A stretch of 64,000 bases of DNA from Escherichia phage JLBYU50, in the sequence record OK272470.1, one strand, 5' to 3'. The first letter of the stretch is position 1; every line of letters begins with the position of its first letter. The translations under genes were made by a program, and so were the position numbers. A model generated the notes under the pieces. It worked only from the letters and a program-made list of their open reading frames with translations, was not told the DNA's origin and made no database searches. This document shows, in pieces, positions 502 through 14,051 of the stretch.

Positions 502-843
502 ATGGAGCTAACAGAAGTATGGGATATCGCTAAAGAGGCGATTATCCCTCTTATTGGCGTAATCTGGGTGGTCTTCAAACAGAAGATAGATGATATGGCA
601 AGTGATTTGGATAAAATGGAAGACAAATACCGCGAACTAGAAAAGAAGTTGGTGTTTGTTGAATCCACTTATGCTACCAAAGCGGAACTTGCTCAAATGC
701 TTAACCAGATCAACTCTACATTAATGGCAAATAACACTGCCTTAGAACAGAAGATTGAAAAAATAATGGATTTAAAAAATGCTCCTGTTCAATTAATGTT
801 AGAGGAGATTACGAAGCGCACACAAAGTAAGGACAAAAATTAA
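502..843 (+). CDS. Hypothetical small protein with N-terminal hydrophobic helix and coiled-coil
   Basis: 113 aa ORF between tail genes, ends immediately before the next start (ATG overlap at 843). Hydrophobic stretch IIPLIGVIWVVF, then charged heptad-like region. Confidence 0.4.
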   Translation: MELTEVWDIAKEAIIPLIGVIWVVFKQKIDDMASDLDKMEDKYRELEKKLVFVESTYATKAELAQMLNQINSTLMANNTALEQKIEKIMDLKNAPVQLMLEEITKRTQSKDKN

Positions 844-3257
844 TGGCGAATTTTCCAACATATCCTGCTACGACACTAGAACAAGGTGTTGATCTGGTTA
901 TATTCTCGTCTAACCAGATGCATGATGTTATTAATGGGGATGCTACAGCAACTGTAGAAACCGAAACAGGTTTAATACCTACACTGCGTAAAGCACTTGT
1001 TGATAACTTCTTCTTTAAGAGTCCTGTTGCTTGGTCAGCAGGATCAACTGAAACTGTATTTAACCAGTTACGTTATTTTGAAAACGGTATCTTGAGTGGG
1101 TACTATTATGCCCCATCTGCCACTACTGCGAACCCTGTACCTATGCAGGGAACACCTGTAGGAGACAGTAACTGGACTCTGTACGCTCTTAAAACTGAAC
1201 AGTTAGCTTCAGATGTGTATCCTTGGTATTTTAAAGGTGCTACAGGATATGAAACAGAAATCAGTCCTCCTTATATCTTTGATAATGCTATTGTCACCAT
1301 TAACGGTGTAATTCAGATTCAAGGTGAAGCATTTACTATCAAAGATAGTAAAATTATTCTGGCAGAACCATTAGGTTTAGATCCGTCTACTGGTCTACCT
1401 AACAAATTGTTTGCTTTTATTGGTAAAACAACAGCCTCTACTTCTTACGTAGAGAAAAACCTTTTGTCATCCACCACTGGTGCAGCAATGGTTGGTCTTC
1501 CATCTGGAGGCAACCTGTTACAAGCTCAATACTTTGTAACGCCTGAGCAGTTTGGTGCAATTGGTGATGGAGTTACCGATGATACTCAAGCAATTTTAAA
1601 AACCATTACTTTCGCTAACACGAATAACATTCAAGTACGTGCAGATAAGAATTATAGATTCACAAGCTCAATTGCTATGTCTGGTATTCGTTGGTATGGT
1701 GGTACATTCACTGGTAACGGTGGAACAATGATTTCTACTGTGTCCTGTTGGATGGAAAACGTTCGCTTTGAAAAATGTTATGTTAAGATGTTAGGTGGTG
1801 ATTGCCGATTCTATCGTAATATCTTCTCCAATGCAACATCTACAGCAGCATTCTTAATGCAAGCAATGACAAGTGAAGGTACGTTGGACTTCAGTTACAA
1901 CGAAATGTATGGTTGTAAATATGCGATCCTGCAACAAGGTACTGGAGAAGTAATGACCTACGGGCGTTACTCTAACAACTATATTCACGATATTAAAGGT
2001 GATGCTATTGAACTTAACGTAGTTCAAAAACACTACACTGAAGGTTTGATTATCGAGAATAACCACATTGCTAACGTAGATGCTTCTGGACAAGGGGCAA
2101 ACTGGGGTATTGGTATTGGTGTAGCAGGTAGTGGCCCATATGGTGTTGATGTTCCTGATTCACAATATGTACGTAATTTCAGTATCGTTGGGAATAGGGT
2201 TTACAATTGCCGTCAATGTTTACACGTTGAAATGGGTAAAAACTTCACAATACGTGATAATGAAGTTTATCCTAACACAGCAGTTTCAACAGGTACAGGT
2301 TTAACTACTTGTGGTGTTGCATTATACGGATGCCAAGATTTTGAAGTTGATGGTTTAACTGGTTATCTGCTTAATGATCCATCTGTTTCAACACGCATGG
2401 TCTTTATTGACTGGGGTGTTAACAGTGGAAGATATGCGGGGCCACCAATTAACTTTACAATTAAGAATTTGGATATTCCAGAATCTTCAATTGAGATTGC
2501 AACATCTGGATCAGATGACTGGGAAAACTCTACAATTGTTAGTAATATCAATTGTAATGTTTTTAAATGGCGTGGGCTACCATCTAGCTCTACCTTTAAT
2601 AATATTCGTTGCCGTAGTATTGACTTTATTGGTCAACACGGAAGCGGAGAAGGAAGTGGTGGCGGTTTCTATACTCGCAGCCAATTCACGTATATGAAGT
2701 GGGTAGGATGTACAGCACTTAGCGGAGATGAAACAACAGTTTCTTTTGCTAAAATCTACACTGATCGTTGCGATCAGGTTGGAAATAACTTTGGTGTTCC
2801 AACTGCTGTTGATGGTACAGGTCATCGTGGGCCAGTTTTAACTACTATTTCTGAACAATATTTTACAGCTTATGATGAATTCCCAGGTGGGCGTGAATTC
2901 CCTACTGGAACAGTTATTCATTGTGCAAGCGGTAAAAAACATGTTGTTACAGTAGGTGGTGCTTTCTTTAGTGCCAACGAGAAAATAAAAGCAACTGTTA
3001 CAGGTCAAACCTATCTACAGTCTAATGCTTTAAACTGGGCTAGTAATGGCTACGCTAAAGCAGCAGGTACTAAGATTGTTATTCCAGGTGCAGGTGCAAA
3101 TGGCGGCGATCTTGTGACAACTATAGCACGTGCTACATATGTGACAAATAGTTTGTACACAATAGATATTGCAGATCCAATTGTAACACCTACAGCAGAG
3201 AATACACAAATTAAAGCTCTGAACCCTGTTACTTTTGTTACTGTCAATAATGCTTAA
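843..3257 (+). CDS. Tailspike / tail fibre with right-handed beta-helix (pectate-lyase fold) depolymerase domain
   Basis: 804 aa. Motif PEQFGAIGDGVTDDTQAI is typical of pectate-lyase-3/beta-helix tailspikes. Gly/Asn-rich repetitive beta-helix-like sequence. Followed by terminator hairpin at 3262-3284. Confidence 0.7.
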   Translation: MANFPTYPATTLEQGVDLVIFSSNQMHDVINGDATATVETETGLIPTLRKALVDNFFFKSPVAWSAGSTETVFNQLRYFENGILSGYYYAPSATTANPVPMQGTPVGDSNWTLYALKTEQLASDVYPWYFKGATGYETEISPPYIFDNAIVTINGVIQIQGEAFTIKDSKIILAEPLGLDPSTGLPNKLFAFIGKTTASTSYVEKNLLSSTTGAAMVGLPSGGNLLQAQYFVTPEQFGAIGDGVTDDTQAILKTITFANTNNIQVRADKNYRFTSSIAMSGIRWYGGTFTGNGGTMISTVSCWMENVRFEKCYVKMLGGDCRFYRNIFSNATSTAAFLMQAMTSEGTLDFSYNEMYGCKYAILQQGTGEVMTYGRYSNNYIHDIKGDAIELNVVQKHYTEGLIIENNHIANVDASGQGANWGIGIGVAGSGPYGVDVPDSQYVRNFSIVGNRVYNCRQCLHVEMGKNFTIRDNEVYPNTAVSTGTGLTTCGVALYGCQDFEVDGLTGYLLNDPSVSTRMVFIDWGVNSGRYAGPPINFTIKNLDIPESSIEIATSGSDDWENSTIVSNINCNVFKWRGLPSSSTFNNIRCRSIDFIGQHGSGEGSGGGFYTRSQFTYMKWVGCTALSGDETTVSFAKIYTDRCDQVGNNFGVPTAVDGTGHRGPVLTTISEQYFTAYDEFPGGREFPTGTVIHCASGKKHVVTVGGAFFSANEKIKATVTGQTYLQSNALNWASNGYAKAAGTKIVIPGAGANGGDLVTTIARATYVTNSLYTIDIADPIVTPTAENTQIKALNPVTFVTVNNA

Positions 3258-3298: not shown

Positions 3299-5260
3299 GT
3301 GATTTTAACACGTCCAAATAGTGCCATTGCAGACATGGTAGAGTCTCGCTATAGAAAGCGTAGAAGTTTTGCAAGTGGTTTTACCTTAAGAGATGCTCGT
3401 GAAGCATTGCTCTTTGAAGCTGACGGTAACTACTATCAGTGGAAAGGTTCTCTACCTAAAGTTGTACCTGCTAACTCTACTCCTACATCTACTGGAGGGA
3501 TTTCAGATACAGCTTGGAAAAATGTGGGTAATGCAGATGACATTGCTCAAATAGAATCAGAATTAGATGCTATTGAAGCTGAAATTGAAGATCTTAGAGA
3601 ATCCATTCCAGAAGCTGGTAAATCAGCTTACCAGATTGCCGTAGACAATGGTTTCCAAGGTACTGAGACAGACTGGTTGGCTTCTTTAAAAGGTGATCCA
3701 GGTGCTCCATTAAAGCTGCTAGGGACGCTATCTAATACCAACCAATTACCTACAACTGGAAACAATGCAGGAGATGCATGGATTGTAGGCGAGAATATGT
3801 ATGCTTGGGATGGTACTGCTTGGAGAAAAGTAAACTCACAGGGGCCAGAAGGTAAATCAGCTTATCAAGTTTGGCTTGCAGCAGGAAACCAAGGTACAGA
3901 ACTAGATTATCTTGCTTCAATTAAAGGTGATAAAGGGGAACCTGGCCCAGAGGGGCCACAAGGTGTGCCAGGTAACAATGCTAATGGTTTTGATTACCAA
4001 GGTGCAGCTAATTCCGTTTCAGATCTTCCTTCTGCATCTCCTGGAAACACATCTCAAGCATGGAGTATTGGTACATATCTATACGTGTCAAACGGTGTAG
4101 AATGGATCAATATGGGCGCTATAGTGGGGCCAAAAGGAGATAAAGGCGACAAAGGAGATAAGGGTAACACTGGTGATTCTGCTTATCAAGTCTGGTTAAA
4201 TGCTGGTAACGTTGGTACTATTGACGAATATATTGCCTCTCTGAAAGGAGAAAAAGGTGATAAGGGAGACAAGGGTGATCAAGGTGAGCAGGGTATACAA
4301 GGCTTGACGGGGCCAACTGGTGCAGGGTTGACAATTATTGATATTCTGACTGACACTTCTGAACTACCACAAACTGGAGAAGATGGTGATGGTTATCTGA
4401 TCAATAATGAACTTTGGGTTTGGTTGCAAGGAGCCACACAGTGGACAAATGTTGGTCGTTTAGCTGGTACTCCAATCACTGCAAAAGGACACGTTGCGTC
4501 TGCAAGTGCACTTCCTCCTACAGCCAATTACGGTGATGCTTATCTGACGGAAGATACAGGTCATCTTTACATTTACACCTATGATGAACAAACTCAAACT
4601 GCTGAATATGTAGATATGGGTAGTTTGAAAGGTGATAAGGGTGAAAAAGGTGACGCTGGTACTAACGGTACAGACGGTGCAACTTGGATTGTTAAAACAA
4701 CAGATCCAATCTCTAGTGATGGTAAACAAGGTGATTATGCCTTTAATATCTCCACTGGCGAGGTGTTCTTAAAAACATCTGCAACTGCCTGGACTTCTCA
4801 AGGTACACTGCCTAGCATCACAGATGCACCTAGTGACGGTAAAATTTATGCTCGTAAAGATGGAGCATGGGAAGAACTCACTAGTTCTGTAGATGGTCAA
4901 GATATAGTTCCAACAAAAGTAACAGCTAATTTTATAGAGGTTACAGCATACACCAACAACTCTGTTACAGGTGACTGGACACCTCCAGGAACACATAACA
5001 TGAATGTGTTGAATCTTACTGGTAACGCTACTATAAAAGCATGGCCTGGTGTCGAAGATAGCACAAAACCTAAACCATTCTCTGCAATAGTTTATCTTAT
5101 CCAAGATGCCACTGGGGGTCATACTGTTACTTTAGATCCATCTTACAAAGTAATTGGTTCTAGTGATATTAATACAGATCCTAACGGAGTAACAATACTA
5201 CAACTAACATATTGTGGTATTGGCGATTACGTGGATGCTATTGTTGCTAAACGCACATAA
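3299..5260 (+). CDS. Tail fibre protein with collagen-like G-X-Y repeats
   Basis: 653 aa, GTG start after RBS aaaggag. Collagen-like tracts (GDKGEPGPEGPQGVPG; GPKGDKGDKGDKGNTG; GEKGDKGDKGDQGEQGIQGLTGPTG). Module KSAYQ(V/I)..AGNQGTE.DYLAS(L/I)KG repeated 3 times. Terminator at 5264-5288. Confidence 0.7.
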   Translation: MILTRPNSAIADMVESRYRKRRSFASGFTLRDAREALLFEADGNYYQWKGSLPKVVPANSTPTSTGGISDTAWKNVGNADDIAQIESELDAIEAEIEDLRESIPEAGKSAYQIAVDNGFQGTETDWLASLKGDPGAPLKLLGTLSNTNQLPTTGNNAGDAWIVGENMYAWDGTAWRKVNSQGPEGKSAYQVWLAAGNQGTELDYLASIKGDKGEPGPEGPQGVPGNNANGFDYQGAANSVSDLPSASPGNTSQAWSIGTYLYVSNGVEWINMGAIVGPKGDKGDKGDKGNTGDSAYQVWLNAGNVGTIDEYIASLKGEKGDKGDKGDQGEQGIQGLTGPTGAGLTIIDILTDTSELPQTGEDGDGYLINNELWVWLQGATQWTNVGRLAGTPITAKGHVASASALPPTANYGDAYLTEDTGHLYIYTYDEQTQTAEYVDMGSLKGDKGEKGDAGTNGTDGATWIVKTTDPISSDGKQGDYAFNISTGEVFLKTSATAWTSQGTLPSITDAPSDGKIYARKDGAWEELTSSVDGQDIVPTKVTANFIEVTAYTNNSVTGDWTPPGTHNMNVLNLTGNATIKAWPGVEDSTKPKPFSAIVYLIQDATGGHTVTLDPSYKVIGSSDINTDPNGVTILQLTYCGIGDYVDAIVAKRT

Positions 5261-5263
5261 TCA

Positions 5264-5288
5264 AAGCCCCTTCGGGGGCTTATTGTTT
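5264..5288 (+). terminator. Rho-independent terminator after collagen-like fibre gene
   Basis: AGCCCC-TTCG-GGGGCT followed by TATTGTTT. Confidence 0.55.
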
Positions 5289-5299
5289 AAGGAGATTAA

Positions 5300-8119
5300 A
5301 TGTATCCTATTCCTTTATTTATGTCAACAACATCAGCTTCAGTAGTAACAGCTACATCTATAACCACTTCCTCTATTGGTATTGCAATAGTTGGTAGTAA
5401 AAAGCAACTGACATACACAGTTTCACCGGAAGATGGTGCGTTATTTGATATAGCTTTTTCATCTTCAGATAATACCAAAATGGTTATAGATAATAGTGGT
5501 ATGATGGAGTTTGTTGCCGAAGGTGGTTTTGATGCAATAATGACAGCTAAAAATAATTTAGGTGCTGTCTTAACTGATCAATCTGGTGGTTATGCTTCAG
5601 AATTAAGCGTGTACACTGAAAGTCTATCAGCTATGGATGTAGGCACTACTCAACAGTTGGTTGCTACAATCAGTCCAGAAGGTGCTAAAGATCTTCCAGA
5701 CATGGTAATTACGTACACCACAACAGATCCAGAAGTAGCTACTGTAAGCCCTACAGGATTAATAACTGCTCTTAAAGATGGTAATTGCCGTATAGGTTGT
5801 ACTGCAACTTATCAAGGAACAGTGGTGGCCTCTGATAGTTCTTATTTAGGTGTTAATGCTATTCCTGTTATTTCTAATGTAACAGCCGTGGCAAACAGCT
5901 ATGGAGACGTTCGTGTTGCTTGGGATGTAGCTGATCCGCTAGATGGTGATACTTATACTGTAGAAGTATTAGATTTAAGTAATAATAGTGTTCAGTGGAC
6001 TACAACAACCACGAATACTTACGCTTACTTTGATATCTCTGACTCTATTCCTCTTTATGGGTTTGCTCCAACATACCTTAAAATTAGCGTTAAGAGCACC
6101 AAAGCAGCAGCCGTTATCTTTAATAACTCAATAGCTACAGATGATTCGTTCATTAAAGAAGTTATTGTTTTTGCTGGACAAGATAACGTAAATGCACACT
6201 TTACAGAACTATCTGGTGCAAATAAAGCAGCAATGAGTAGCACAACAGCCCGTAATGCATATGCTACGCAACGTGGTTTAGCAAATGCTGAAGTTCTTCC
6301 GTTAAATACAGCTTCTGGATCATCAGCAGCAGATAAATATGCTGACGATAAAGCTGGAACAGGTACACCAGACAACTACTGGTATGATCTGGATAACACA
6401 GCAGATGGGCCATGCTTAACTAACTTTATCACTAAAGTCACACCTTATGCAAGTAAGGTTAAAGCCATTATTTGGGGACAAGGTGAAAATGATGCTGTAT
6501 CATCATCTTCAACTGTTGCAGGTAGATACAGTAACACTACACGTTACCATGATGCTACGATAGCTATCTTTGATAAGATGCGTACAATAGTTCCTGCTTC
6601 TCAAGCAAAAATTGTTTGGCAGATCCTGGGACGTTCTTATTTATATGGTGTAGAAGTTAATGGTGTGGATTGGCAGAAGTACAGAAATGTACAAAGAACC
6701 ATCTCTACAGCACGTGATGATGTTATCATTGGTTCTTGGGTAGATGGTGCTGAACGTTACAGTGGTTATGTTTATGAAGAAGGTATTGATGGTCGTATCC
6801 ATTATATTTCTTCTGTATACCAAACAGCAGCTACAAAACTTGCTAAATCAGCAGCAGACGGTACAGACCTAACATCAACGTCACCTGTTTGGGTTGATAT
6901 GGCTGTTCCAACTGGAGCAACAGCTACTTCCCAATCTAATCAAGATACAATTTTAGTATGGGATGCTCAAGGCTATAGTAAACACTACTTCCGTAATATT
7001 AACGTCTTAACAGCATCTGTATTAACTGAACAAACGCTTAATACGAACAGCTATACGTTTACCTATGCAGATCAAGTAGAACAATATGGTTTTGCAGCAG
7101 GAACTACTATATTTGATGTTGCATATTATGATGAAGCAAATGATGTGTTATCTCCTTTAGTACGTTTTAATGTTAACGTTACAGCAGGAACCGTAGAAGA
7201 TAAACCTGTAGTGATGGATTATGATTTAACACAAGAAACTCTTCCATCAGATGTTAAGGTTAATGGTGGGAACTCTTTTGCTCGTGCTTCTGGAGATACA
7301 CTTGTAGCCACTAACACCTTGGTTGCTCCGTTGGAGTATGTTGGCACTACCCCTGTAGGTAGACGTGTAACAGCTAACACAGCTACACAAATTTTTGTCA
7401 ACAACGCCTTAACAAGCGCAAGCCCGTGGGTAAAGACCAACTTAACTGTTTCAACTTCATCTGATAAATCTCCGGCTGGAACTACTGCCAATGTATTCAA
7501 ATTAACTCCGACTACAACATCTGGTAGTCATATCTTAACTGCAACATATACTAACGCGTACAACATATATGCCGGACGTAACTGGTCTGCCTCTGTTTTC
7601 TTGAAAGCGAACGGGATTACTAAGGCCAAACTAAGATTAAAAGCAGGAACTGAAGTTAATGAGGGTACTTTTGATTTAGCAGCAGGTACATTTACAGGAA
7701 GTGAAGCTAATATTATATCTATGGGTAACGGTTGGTATCGTGCTATTCTGCATAAAACAGGGATAGCCAAACAGTCCTCCATAAGTTTTGAAATAATTGC
7801 CTTGGATGCAACTGGTGCGGAGATTTTCGCTGGGGATGGTACTAGTAACCTTGCAGTTTGGTTGCCACAGCTTGAAGGTGCTCCTACAGGAGAAACATCA
7901 AAAGCTGGAGCGCCTTATGTCTGCACATATCCTGGAAGTTTAGGAGGAGTATCCTTCACTATACCAAGGAACGGACATACTGGTGTGGATGTTTACTATT
8001 CCAACGGGGACGTTGTTCGTGACGTATTCTCTGGTACGGCATCTACTTGGACAATAAACTACTCCAGCTTGTACGATTGGGGATCAGTCTTTATTACAGG
8101 TTTGAAATATTACGACTAA
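5300..8119 (+). CDS. Tail fibre / adhesin with Big_2 (bacterial Ig-like) domain and possible degenerate SASA/SGNH-esterase-like region
   Basis: 939 aa. Big_2-like segment (VITYTTTDPEVATVSPTGLITALKDGNCRIGCTATYQG). Motifs FAGQDNV and IIWGQGENDA resemble GQSN / QGE(S/N)D blocks of sialate-O-acetylesterase-type domains. Terminator at 8124-8151. Confidence 0.6.
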   Translation: MYPIPLFMSTTSASVVTATSITTSSIGIAIVGSKKQLTYTVSPEDGALFDIAFSSSDNTKMVIDNSGMMEFVAEGGFDAIMTAKNNLGAVLTDQSGGYASELSVYTESLSAMDVGTTQQLVATISPEGAKDLPDMVITYTTTDPEVATVSPTGLITALKDGNCRIGCTATYQGTVVASDSSYLGVNAIPVISNVTAVANSYGDVRVAWDVADPLDGDTYTVEVLDLSNNSVQWTTTTTNTYAYFDISDSIPLYGFAPTYLKISVKSTKAAAVIFNNSIATDDSFIKEVIVFAGQDNVNAHFTELSGANKAAMSSTTARNAYATQRGLANAEVLPLNTASGSSAADKYADDKAGTGTPDNYWYDLDNTADGPCLTNFITKVTPYASKVKAIIWGQGENDAVSSSSTVAGRYSNTTRYHDATIAIFDKMRTIVPASQAKIVWQILGRSYLYGVEVNGVDWQKYRNVQRTISTARDDVIIGSWVDGAERYSGYVYEEGIDGRIHYISSVYQTAATKLAKSAADGTDLTSTSPVWVDMAVPTGATATSQSNQDTILVWDAQGYSKHYFRNINVLTASVLTEQTLNTNSYTFTYADQVEQYGFAAGTTIFDVAYYDEANDVLSPLVRFNVNVTAGTVEDKPVVMDYDLTQETLPSDVKVNGGNSFARASGDTLVATNTLVAPLEYVGTTPVGRRVTANTATQIFVNNALTSASPWVKTNLTVSTSSDKSPAGTTANVFKLTPTTTSGSHILTATYTNAYNIYAGRNWSASVFLKANGITKAKLRLKAGTEVNEGTFDLAAGTFTGSEANIISMGNGWYRAILHKTGIAKQSSISFEIIALDATGAEIFAGDGTSNLAVWLPQLEGAPTGETSKAGAPYVCTYPGSLGGVSFTIPRNGHTGVDVYYSNGDVVRDVFSGTASTWTINYSSLYDWGSVFITGLKYYD

Positions 8120-8123
8120 TAAA

Positions 8124-8151
8124 AAAGGAGCCTAATGGCTCCTTTTCTTTT
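8124..8151. terminator. Bidirectional terminator at convergence of + late genes and - strand block
   Basis: AGGAGCC-TAAT-GGCTCCT flanked by A-run upstream and TTTTCTTTT downstream. Confidence 0.6.
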
Positions 8152-11471: not shown

Positions 11472-14051
11472 TCAGTGACAACTAGCCCATGAGTTACCAA
11501 CATCGTAACCAGCAGTGAGAGGTACATTAAGATTGTAATACTCACCAGCTTTATTAACAGCAATAGATGCTAATTCTCCAGCACGACTGTAGGCTGTAAA
11601 CCAACCACCTTTCGGAGATTCATGTACGTTAGCCCAAATCTTGCCAGTACGTTTCTCTTCCTCTTCTTTCCAGGTATTAACTTTATCCAAACATTCTTTA
11701 TCAATTTTCTTTTGTTCTTCTGGATCATCAACTTGAGTCCAACCTAAAGATTCTTTAGAGAACCATTTAAAATGCACCAGATCACGAGTTACTTCAAGCT
11801 GTGCTTCATCGTGGTATGCAATCATTTGTTGAACGAATGACTTATTTTTCCAGTCATCAACAAAAAAGTCAACAGCTAATCCTTCTTCTTCGATAAGATC
11901 ATCGTAGATAACCATTGCTCTTTTTGCACAAATAACACCACCACTCTGGAACAGAGAGTTAAGTATTGCGTGTGCAGATCGTGTAGGTACTTTCCTTCCA
12001 TCAATACCAAGAATGTATTTCTTACCTGTTTTAACCCAAAAATCATGCAGACGTTCTTTAAGAAGAGCAAGAGGTTTTGCAGCTTCCCAGAAAGCATCGT
12101 ATACAAGCTGTCCTGTATACATATCACTACCAATGGTTTTTGCTACTTTTGCAGCTTGAGCACCATAAGTAATACCATACTTAACAGATTTAGCAGGGCT
12201 TCGTTCAAACTTACGACCAATAGTATCAGAAATACGTCGAGCCATCATTGTATGAACATCATTAGGTTTTTCCAACAATAGAGCATTACAATATTCGTGT
12301 GGTTCCTGCTCGTACCGCCAACAGTAGTGTGATTCTATTTTTGCCTCAAGAGAATCAAAGTCATAACCAATTTGGAAGTATTTTGGAACTTCTACACCAA
12401 ATAAGTTACGCATTTCATATCCGTACAGAGATGTTACACGTGGGATATTTGCTACTAACCTATGTTTCATACGAGATGTAGCTGCATCACACGTTGCAGC
12501 AGGAGTTGGTATACGACCATCAGCCCTTACTGCTGCCAGATAACCTTTATCGTAATCCTCTTCATCTTCTTCCCAATCAGCACCACCCCCTAAAATAGAG
12601 TTCCTACGGTGTTTATACGTAAGATACTGCACAATCTGCGTAGCATAAGGAAACTTTTCACCTAGTGCTTCCAAGTTAGGACAAATATCTTTCTCTTGCC
12701 CTTTTGTAAAGGAAGGGTTAGTAAGCACTTTAACACCACGACCTTTAGCTTTAGCAATACGATCTCTTAGTTTCCATTCCAAAGTTTCTGGTGTGCACTC
12801 CAGATGATCACATCTGTCCTGGCAGAAGTTAGATGCTAATGTTTGATCAACGTAGTCACGAATAGCTTTCTCCATTTGTGCTTCATCTTTCTTAATCTTA
12901 GTGCCAGATTTAAGAGTGATATCTTTATCTTTATATTCAGATGGACTCCAACCTAAACCAACTAACCAGTTTTTAATATGTGTAGTGTCATCTAAAGTAG
13001 CAGGTACTGTAGGATCACAAATAGGTTCTTCTGCTGGAATAGGGAGTTTAAACTCTTTACCTAATGCAAATAACCACCAACCATCTTCTTTTTGTACAAG
13101 TTCACCAGAATGTTTCTCTGCAAACTTTATCATGTTACTTGAAGGTTCACCATTCTTTTTAAACTGTAGTTTAGGTGGAATGAATGATTTCAAATAACCT
13201 TTAGTAGCAGGTTTGGGAGGTAGTACAGGTTCTGCCTCTAAACGACATGCTTCCATTCGAGCATCCAGATCACGAATATTATCTTCTGCTTGTTTCATAT
13301 TGAAAGCAAAGCCACGGTGCTCTTGACGTGTAATAATATCAGCTACACGTTGTTCTAAGTTAAATGGTTCAGACCACTTATTATAATCACCCCACTCTTC
13401 CATCAAATAACGGAACACTGCGGTGTTAGCTTTGTTATCGTAAATACAGTAATACAGCATATCTGCTGCAAATGTTTTAAATCTTTCAGTTTCAGGAATG
13501 TTTTTTCTAAAATCAATTTTAACATCCCCTCCAGCTTTCTTAGATAACTCTGCCAGACTATGACCACCGAAGCGATCAGGGTTTAGTGTCTTACTTAAGA
13601 TCATAGTATCACAAATTTCAATGTTACTATTACCCCAAGTATTGTACTTAATACTATAGTTGAGTTTAAAAAATAATTTAATTGCCAGTAAGTCGAAGTT
13701 AATGATGTTGTGTCCAACTACTTTGGTAATTTTATAGTTTGAATTACCTTTAAATTTACCTGTTCCATTTACAAAATCAGGAAAATCTTTAAGAGGGAAA
13801 TGGGTATATTCTAAATGCTCATATTCCTCCAGTCGGTATTCATACTTTCCGTCAGTCTCAATATACGGACGACCATCGAAAAGATATTTATCACCATCAT
13901 GGAAAGCAATAATCTCTCCAGTATCATGACTTTCGCACACAATACAGTGCATTGCAAAACTATCTTTTAAACGATATGGACTTGCCAAGTAATCTACACT
14001 TTCGTCATTAAGCAAGTTGTTACTTTCAATGTCGAAAGTAAAAGCTCCCAT
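11472..14051 (-). CDS. DNA polymerase, family A (with 3'-5' exonuclease domain)
   Basis: 859 aa. Exo I motif FDIES at N-terminus. Pol A motif B (KSVKYGITYGAQA) and motif C (YHDEAQLEV). Confidence 0.9.
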   Translation of the reverse strand: MGAFTFDIESNNLLNDESVDYLASPYRLKDSFAMHCIVCESHDTGEIIAFHDGDKYLFDGRPYIETDGKYEYRLEEYEHLEYTHFPLKDFPDFVNGTGKFKGNSNYKITKVVGHNIINFDLLAIKLFFKLNYSIKYNTWGNSNIEICDTMILSKTLNPDRFGGHSLAELSKKAGGDVKIDFRKNIPETERFKTFAADMLYYCIYDNKANTAVFRYLMEEWGDYNKWSEPFNLEQRVADIITRQEHRGFAFNMKQAEDNIRDLDARMEACRLEAEPVLPPKPATKGYLKSFIPPKLQFKKNGEPSSNMIKFAEKHSGELVQKEDGWWLFALGKEFKLPIPAEEPICDPTVPATLDDTTHIKNWLVGLGWSPSEYKDKDITLKSGTKIKKDEAQMEKAIRDYVDQTLASNFCQDRCDHLECTPETLEWKLRDRIAKAKGRGVKVLTNPSFTKGQEKDICPNLEALGEKFPYATQIVQYLTYKHRRNSILGGGADWEEDEEDYDKGYLAAVRADGRIPTPAATCDAATSRMKHRLVANIPRVTSLYGYEMRNLFGVEVPKYFQIGYDFDSLEAKIESHYCWRYEQEPHEYCNALLLEKPNDVHTMMARRISDTIGRKFERSPAKSVKYGITYGAQAAKVAKTIGSDMYTGQLVYDAFWEAAKPLALLKERLHDFWVKTGKKYILGIDGRKVPTRSAHAILNSLFQSGGVICAKRAMVIYDDLIEEEGLAVDFFVDDWKNKSFVQQMIAYHDEAQLEVTRDLVHFKWFSKESLGWTQVDDPEEQKKIDKECLDKVNTWKEEEEKRTGKIWANVHESPKGGWFTAYSRAGELASIAVNKAGEYYNLNVPLTAGYDVGNSWASCH

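Follow-up and report, generated by a model that had tools for sequence, protein, structure and literature searches.

The closest known system to the protein considered here comprises gp65 of phage N4 and the N4-like "tail sheath and receptor binding" or "160 kDa" proteins. These proteins contain SGNH-like domains. SGNH hydrolases build their acyl-enzyme on the Ser of Block I, which acts as the nucleophile (PMC9487903). In the SASA-type enzymes, the Gln next to this Ser makes an "inverted" oxyanion hole and is held in position by the (H)QGE motif of Block III; a His in Block V completes the set, and the Block V Asp is dispensable, given that EcNanS lacks it (PMC9487903). Here, we examined a 64,000-nucleotide (nt) window from Escherichia phage JLBYU50 (OK272470.1), in which the open reading frame (ORF) at positions 5300 to 8119 encodes a protein with a SASA-type SGNH domain that carries an Asp in the column of the catalytic Ser. 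The Asp arose once, from Ser-bearing ancestors, and the domain has probably lost its esterase activity.

The ORF is the ortholog of bas60_0037 of phage PaulScherrer and of the "tail protein" of phage alia, and its DNA is 97 to 99% identical to counterparts in many Justusliebigvirus Escherichia phages. Justusliebigvirus comprises the phi92/alia-like phages of the Stephanstirmvirinae. These phages are among the coliphages with the broadest host range and are candidates for therapy, and the roles of individual gene products in their multi-fiber "Swiss army knife" are unsettled (PMC8594841, PMC13450770). The labels given to orthologs in sequence records vary and include "tail protein," "lateral tail fiber protein," "non-contractile tail sheath," and "tail carbohydrate esterase." The original prediction, made from the letters of the window, had described a Big_2 domain and a SASA/SGNH carbohydrate esterase-like region with an Asp at the nucleophile position, and the ORF and the motifs that it quoted (FAGQDN and IIWGQGEND) are present as described.

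The SGNH domain and its nucleophile column

The 939-amino-acid (aa) protein does not itself reach the Pfam gathering threshold for SASA (PF03629), scoring 14.4 bits against a cutoff of 24.8 over aa 374 to 433, which cover Block III only. This low score would suit a chance resemblance or a misalignment, with either no SGNH/SASA domain in the protein or an Asp that does not lie at the nucleophile position, but we regard this explanation as extremely improbable, given that it is refuted by the SGNH model, the structural matches, the strong profile links, and a gap-free alignment of the FAGQ[S/D]N motif. The assignment to PF03629 instead runs through homologs. A six-sequence profile of the domain found the relative P0117 at an E value of 1e-22, and P0117 passes the Pfam SASA cutoff with 46.7 bits and carries GQSN, WAQGEQE, and DSVHF. 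A 22-sequence profile matched the solved SASA/CE6 and CE20 esterases 1ZMB, 9H4U, 7KMM, and 2APJ at E values of 9e-5 to 7e-4; the His of DNLH in 2APJ pairs with the H501 column in a significant piece, and GQSN of 2APJ and 7KMM pairs with AGQsN of the profile, the D295 column, in short, low-scoring local pieces. The depth of the search mattered for recovering these relatives: a word-index search with the domain only returned two fragments, a profile search added three more useful proteins, and the family was revealed by an exhaustive profile search of 1.84 billion representatives, which found 238 proteins at E values of ≤1e-3.

The structure-based evidence agrees. An AlphaFold2 model of aa 275 to 535 (predicted local distance difference test [pLDDT] score, 88.2; pTM, 0.89) has the three-layer alpha/beta/alpha SGNH fold on which the original prediction had staked its reading, with a strand at aa 287 to 293 followed by a helix that begins at D295. 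In the model, D295 lies where strand 1 passes into helix 1, which is the site of the nucleophile in SGNH enzymes. A Foldseek search of the PDB returned N4 gp65 first (TMq, 0.77; E value, 1e-13), followed by CE2 enzymes (4XVH and 2WAO), the SASA-type 1ZMB and 2APJ, the CE20 enzyme 7KMM, PatB, and GDSL esterases, with more than 70 SGNH esterases at E values of ≤1e-3. In a viral structure library, it returned phi92 gp153, the ortholog from alia, and, at E values of ~1e-6, many SGNH tail proteins of phages. Transitive homology, the confident AlphaFold2 model, and the Foldseek matches together indicate that the SASA-type SGNH domain is genuine. The original prediction had placed it within aa 250 to 550; the domain is there but spans only ~aa 276 to 535, and the last third of the protein forms a distinct receptor-binding tip that can be exchanged. 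The gene, the domain, and its motifs are as follows.

5300..8119, + strand: complete ORF of 939 aa with an ATG start, the last gene of a + strand tail fiber cluster
6125..6904, + strand: SASA-type SGNH-fold domain without the Ser nucleophile (aa 276 to 535), from the AlphaFold2 model, Foldseek, and profile matches
6170..6187, + strand: Block I, F291-A-G-Q294-D295-N296, with D295 (GAT, 6182 to 6184) in the catalytic Ser column and Q294 as the SASA oxyanion Gln, from alignments and PMC9487903
6317..6325, + strand: Block II, G340-S341-S342 (GSSAAD), with S342 invariant, conserved in three alignments
6473..6493, + strand: Block III, W392-G-Q394-G395-E396-N-D398, the SASA (H)QGE motif, from the Pfam piece, alignments, and profile
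6788..6805, + strand: Block V region, D497-G-R-I-H501-Y502, with H501 in the catalytic His column, from alignments and profile

The protein retains Q294, G340, Q394-G-E396, and H501, and among these SASA hallmarks only the Ser is missing. Both the Block I Gln and the Block III motif (W-G-Q394-G-E396) are those of SASA enzymes; the original prediction had read Block III through the longer string IIWGQGENDA, of which the QGE part is the hallmark and the Asn of GENDA is a variable position in the family. The Block II Gly is present as G340, although it pairs with "WGGSAIE" of 7KMM in a low-scoring local piece only. The Block V His, H501, is invariant in the 22-sequence alignment. D497, the sole candidate for the acid of the triad, stands at −4 to the His (DxxxH) rather than at −3 and is polymorphic (D or A) among orthologs. 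We considered whether this D497A polymorphism is a sign of a relaxed triad but rejected it as weak; a missing Block V Asp is not diagnostic, because the Ser-bearing tail relatives and EcNanS also lack it (PMC9487903).

At the catalytic Ser position itself, Asp295 is fixed in all 31 ortholog clusters. The alignment across this motif is gap free, with FAGQSN in P0036, P0037, and P0115, FAGQSH in P0043 and P0044, and FAGGDN in a group of 645-aa proteins, P0032 to P0034. Together with the 22-sequence profile, these homolog alignments exclude the misalignment that the original prediction had kept as an alternative. Across the 180 domain instances that we tabulated, GQSN, W.QGE.D, and H predominate, and the Ser column holds an Asp in Justusliebigvirus (GQDN) and P0032 to P0034 (GGDN) but in none of the other 170+. 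A sequencing error at Asp295 was rejected, given that FAGQDN is found in 31/31 ortholog clusters and in 5/5 translated phage alleles. We likewise rejected pseudogene status for the ORF, which is intact, has an identical motif across the orthologs examined, and has a low ratio of nonsynonymous to synonymous substitution rates (dN/dS).

In a neighbor-joining tree with 100 bootstraps, the two Asp-bearing groups, Justusliebigvirus and P0032 to P0034, are sisters with 100/100 bootstrap support and are nested among Ser-bearing sequences. Because the two groups are sisters inside a Ser-bearing radiation, the Ser was replaced by Asp once. The P0032 to P0034 clade has since changed further: Gly stands in place of the Gln of Block I, Leu in place of the Gln of Block III, and, in two of its three sequences, Gln in place of the His, which is the pattern that would be expected once catalysis was no longer needed. 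The domains of Escherichia phages 18-1-2, 24-2-1, and Av-05 are 46.9% identical to the query by tblastn, the same level as P0032 to P0034, and from this level of identity alone we take these phages to be the cultured counterparts of P0032 to P0034. Catalytic residues have also been lost independently in related tail modules: P0119 has Ala for the Ser (GQAN), P0123 has Met for the Ser (GQMN) and Asn for the His, and the second copy in N4 gp65 reads VGINQF. Because of these independent losses, the SGNH fold can be said to have been used repeatedly without catalysis.

Predicted role of the Asp-bearing domain

Given that SGNH chemistry needs the Ser for the acyl-enzyme, the domain has most likely ceased to act as an esterase. 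We consider it probable, from the sequence comparisons and the model, that the protein is a pseudo-esterase whose SGNH domain has been kept for carbohydrate binding or as a structural module. The domain would descend from a Ser-bearing SASA-type acetylesterase module circulating in N4 gp65-type phage tail proteins, with the nucleophilic Ser replaced by Asp in the common ancestor of Justusliebigvirus and its small sister group. The Ser295Asp change would remove the acyl-enzyme chemistry and leave a well-folded, selectively maintained pocket (Gln294, Q394-G-E, and His501), with a carboxylate now at its center. The domain may then serve as a non-hydrolytic carbohydrate-binding module or as a rigid stalk element that presents the following Ig domain and, in long forms, the tip, and the whole protein would be a modular adhesin or side-fiber protein of Justusliebigvirus. 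Of the alternatives that the original prediction had raised, the evolutionary pattern favors the inactivated binding module, and a variant catalytic mechanism is possible but unlikely. The remaining domains of the protein are as follows.

5357..5860, + strand: two Big_2 Ig-like domains (aa ~20 to 100 and 105 to 187), from Pfam PF02368, the Ig region of PDB 6N1A, and PHROG Ig-domain structural and major-tail families
5867..6124, + strand: FN3/Ig-like beta domain (aa ~190 to 275, "SNVTAVANSYGDVRVAWDV..."), from alignment; all beta, with pLDDT of 74 to 89 in the full-length model
6905..7183, + strand: Ig/FN3-like domain (aa 536 to 628), where the natural short forms stop; strongly diverged in short-form alleles
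7184..8116, + strand: exchangeable C-terminal tip (aa 629 to 939; 311 aa), a GTA-head-spike-fiber-like receptor-binding domain, from NCBIfam and PDB matches

The Big_2 domain, which the original prediction had named, passes its Pfam gathering threshold over two stretches (PF02368; E value, 1.2e-13; 51.2 bits versus 22.8). The full-length AlphaFold2 model was weak (pLDDT, 59, with most of the tip below 50) and served for secondary structure only, with no structural search made from it. The long form of the protein is ~940 aa, and ~25 Justusliebigviruses (e.g., muut and Eryne) carry a natural 628-aa short form that lacks the tip. Between alleles whose tips share only 62 to 66% identity, the SGNH domain is ~100% identical. 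Compared with four other alleles, its dN/dS is 0.06 to 0.10, a value that comes from few changes (10 to 14 synonymous and 2 to 5 nonsynonymous), and this indicates that the domain is under purifying selection in Justusliebigvirus.

The ortholog in phi92 (NC_023693.1, 91320 to 92982) is broken by a 218-nt internal deletion that shifts the frame (gene nt 591 to 808), and its end is the stop of the short form. The annotation divides it into gp152, which holds the Big_2 part, and gp153, whose start lies within the SGNH domain, so that Block I is missing from it; a decayed copy fits with gp152 and gp153 going unmentioned in the recent phi92 virion structure paper. Given that phi92 with this deletion still infects many hosts (PMC13450770), the esterase fold might be a purely structural spacer, a rigid building block that binds no ligand, in a gene that is accessory or dispensable. 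The second SGNH-like copy of N4 gp65 offers a parallel, since it is fully degenerate at Block I and sits in the sheath wall, and the variation that determines specificity in the JLBYU50 protein and its orthologs lies in the tip and not in the SGNH domain. We nevertheless think a pure spacer unlikely. It leaves the intact Q294, QGE, and H501 in Justusliebigvirus unexplained, although the sister clade shows that these residues can be lost, and short forms that end in the SGNH domain plus one Ig domain are widespread.

Several observations weigh against a pseudo-esterase. All of the other SASA hallmarks are intact in Justusliebigvirus, and the Asp has been retained in both clades at ~47% identity; each of these facts would be equally compatible with a carboxylate that has a function. 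In the ~25 short-form phages, no module other than the SGNH domain is non-Ig, and the domain must therefore do something there. The counts behind the dN/dS estimate are small. Finally, the location of the JLBYU50 protein on the virion is inferred, and phi92, the only member with virion structures, has a disrupted copy.

The intact hallmarks, the retained Asp, and the short forms could also be explained by an active enzyme with a variant mechanism, in which Asp295 acts as a nucleophile through an acyl-anhydride intermediate or, with His501, as a general base, and the domain still de-O-acetylates or otherwise modifies a surface glycan. Such an enzyme would account for the retention of Q294, QGE, and H501 under purifying selection, for the conservation of the Asp in both descendant clades, and for the short-form alleles, which offer no other candidate functional domain, and some records already label the gene "tail carbohydrate esterase." To our knowledge, no member of the SGNH superfamily has been found to use Asp as its nucleophile, and the SGNH review does not describe one (PMC9487903). 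Among the domain instances tabulated, the Asp is confined to the two sister groups. The sister clade keeps the Asp even though both Gln residues and usually the His are gone, and the Asp is therefore independent of that catalytic apparatus. The "esterase" labels are apparently automated, fold- or profile-based calls, for which our literature search found no supporting paper. We therefore judge an Asp-based enzyme to be quite improbable, and its more specific version, a competent SGNH enzyme that uses Asp295, His501, and the SASA Gln oxyanion hole to act on a conserved surface glycan such as NGR, to be very unlikely. If the Asp variant were nonetheless active, it would extend SGNH chemistry and found a class of carbohydrate esterases or transferases with a new mechanism.

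If instead the domain is a pseudo-esterase, as we favor, the "tail carbohydrate esterase" label in some GenBank records is probably wrong as to function. The family would then show clearly how a receptor-binding enzyme of a phage can become a pseudo-enzyme in nature, with a single substitution after which one daughter lineage visibly decayed and the other was preserved. The gene itself is already public, and automated annotation has evidently picked up its esterase-like fold; our literature search found no paper on the Ser-to-Asp replacement, on its single origin, or on the link to the gp65 SGNH module.

The exchangeable tip and flanking features

The tip passes the NCBIfam NF048003 GTA_spike_fiber cutoff (70.1 bits versus 36) over aa 694 to 863 (nt 7379 to 7888), and its PDB matches are the tail fiber gp17 (9OCC; E value, 1.5e-19) and the RcGTA head spike fiber Rcc01080 (6TB9; E value, 4e-13). 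Klebsiella phage ZCKP1 shares only the tip part, at 96% nucleotide identity, and the tip is ~62% identical in other ~150-kb E. coli phages (e.g., Schickermooser and ESCO37, of Phapecoctavirus size) and ~27% identical in small siphophages. The distribution of these matches indicates that the tip has been exchanged horizontally. In the short-form alleles, the last Ig domain (aa 536 to 628) is already highly diverged, with a synonymous rate above 1, and this points to a recombination break near aa 536.

Eryne, a short-form phage, reportedly makes poor use of NGR, and its growth is poor when O-antigen is absent. The matches of the three NGR-dependent BASEL phages extend past nt 1884 of the gene, and these phages are therefore not short forms: PaulScherrer and EmilieFrey are long by their annotated coding sequences, and JohannJBalmer is long by 87% query coverage only. 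A link between the short form and poor use of NGR is not robust, given that the short-form phages muut, arall, and outra were isolated on K-12 MG1655.

The feature that borders the gene on its 3′ side is a hairpin.

8123..8146, strand unassigned: terminator-like hairpin with a 10-bp stem and A and T runs on either side, between the ORF and the convergent − strand genes

This strong hairpin lies directly 3′ of the stop codon and is possibly a bidirectional terminator; a "terminator" is annotated at the equivalent place in phages PATM and Paula. A second terminator-like hairpin, with a GC-rich 7-bp stem and a weak T tail, lies at 5264 to 5281, between the ORF and the collagen-repeat fiber gene upstream. 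That upstream gene (3299 to 5260, + strand) encodes a Tail_spike_N N-terminal domain of the TSP1/Gp66 type, collagen-like GXY repeats, and a fibritin-C-like segment, and the gene before it (843 to 3257, + strand) is orthologous to that of the phi92 colanidase tailspike, gp150, and encodes a TSP_Ig-like domain. On the − strand, an 859-aa ORF at 11472 to 14051 occupies the place that in PaulScherrer is taken by a DNA polymerase precursor of 1104 aa, 245 aa of which are an intein. Because 1104 less 245 is 859, this is apparently an intein-free DNA polymerase allele. Four "Campylobacter phage" records (MG065639, MG065656, MG065689, and MG065645, for A150, C3, A110a, and A145, with C. jejuni as the host) are 94 to 98% identical to the ORF and share its genome size, and they are probably mislabeled or contaminant E. 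coli phages.

Comparison with N4 gp65 and other known systems

The enzymes of the SASA/CE6 family (PF03629; At4g34215, 2APJ; CAC0529, 1ZMB; EcNanS, 3PT5) and of CE20 (7KMM and 9H4U) share with the JLBYU50 protein the SGNH fold, the Block I Gln, the Block III QGE, and the Block V His, and the likeness to SASA/CE6 extends to a Block V Asp that is optional, as in EcNanS. Unlike these enzymes, the JLBYU50 protein has Asp for Ser, a subthreshold Pfam score, extra loops, and a phage structural context. Phage SGNH esterase tailspikes and fibers, such as the O-antigen deacetylase G7C gp63.1 and the Moo19/B2 tailspikes, likewise carry an SGNH module within a receptor-binding protein. However, they belong to other SGNH subfamilies and are Ser enzymes competent for catalysis, and the likeness is at the level of the fold only, at 10 to 16% identity. 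The kinship with O-antigen-deacetylating fibers that the original prediction had proposed does not hold in that form, given that the nearest relatives are the SGNH-like domains of N4 gp65-type proteins. The likeness to RcGTA Rcc01080 (6TB9) and gp17 (9OCC) is confined to the tip (aa 629 to 939), which is fused here to a long Ig/SGNH stalk.

N4 gp65 is a "non-contractile tail sheath" and receptor-binding protein (PDB 9LC0, 9YF4, 9YF5, and 9YFT), and its two SGNH-like copies are the best sequence match of the domain (profile E values, 1e-44 to 4e-49) as well as the best structural match. PHROG 15324, "tail sheath and receptor binding protein," matches the JLBYU50 protein at an E value of 3e-37. 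Residues ~620 to 1060 of gp65 form an FN3–SGNH-like–FN3 module in the same arrangement as in the JLBYU50 protein. The FN3/Ig-like module also precedes the SGNH domain in the N4 gp65-type relatives, and gp65 residues 618 to 663 align to the corresponding part of P0037. In gp65, the second SGNH-like copy, which lacks the catalytic motif, is part of the sheath wall. Block I, which is an otherwise intact GQDN in the JLBYU50 protein, reads GESQ and GINQ in the two gp65 copies. The first copy (residues 433 to 600, FAGESQ...WGQGDQD; PDB 9LC0/9YF4) matches the domain profile over its first two-thirds only. Residues 16 to 77 of N4 gp64 (GQIHF), at the N terminus of this partner protein, match the missing C-terminal third, at an E value of 0.17, or of 0.006 with a broader profile, which suggests that the SGNH domain is split across the gp64-gp65 heterodimer in N4.

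The two proteins also differ. The JLBYU50 protein has Big_2 domains and a GTA-spike-like tip that gp65 lacks, and it belongs to a myovirus fiber cluster and not to a podovirus sheath. A Pfam scan found neither NCTSP_N (PF23844) nor the NCTSP TIM barrel (PF23845) in it; both are present in P0036, P0037, P0043, and PaulScherrer bas60_0026. In the single-chain metagenomic relatives P0037 and P0043, the order is NCTSP_N, TIM barrel, FN3, Ser-bearing SGNH, and FN3. The metagenomic P0036 (1173 aa) has a Mu Gp48 baseplate domain followed by NCTSP_N, a Ser-bearing SGNH domain, and the TIM barrel, and the same modules have therefore also been built into a myovirus-type baseplate protein. In Justusliebigvirus, the modules are split over two genes: bas60_0026 encodes Calx-beta, NCTSP_N, and the TIM barrel, and the ORF described here encodes FN3, the Asp-bearing SGNH domain, and Ig. 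At its core, the JLBYU50 protein has the module that makes up the C-terminal half of receptor-binding sheath proteins of the N4 gp65 type, with the other half in a separate gene, the counterpart of which lies outside the 64-kb window. The bas60_0026 fiber is the one called "deacetylase" by BASEL, where it was aligned to N4 gp64. We considered whether the ORF itself could be this "glycan deacetylase" fiber and rejected it, given that the fiber in question is bas60_0026, with NCTSP_N and the TIM barrel.

N4 and the tested Justusliebigviruses both need the NGR glycan pathway (nfrA/nfrB/wecB) (PMC8669472, PMC11990801). Judging from the shared modules, the JLBYU50 protein may take part in the recognition of NGR or NfrA, and the shared dependence makes the products of this ORF and of bas60_0026 a candidate pair for that recognition.

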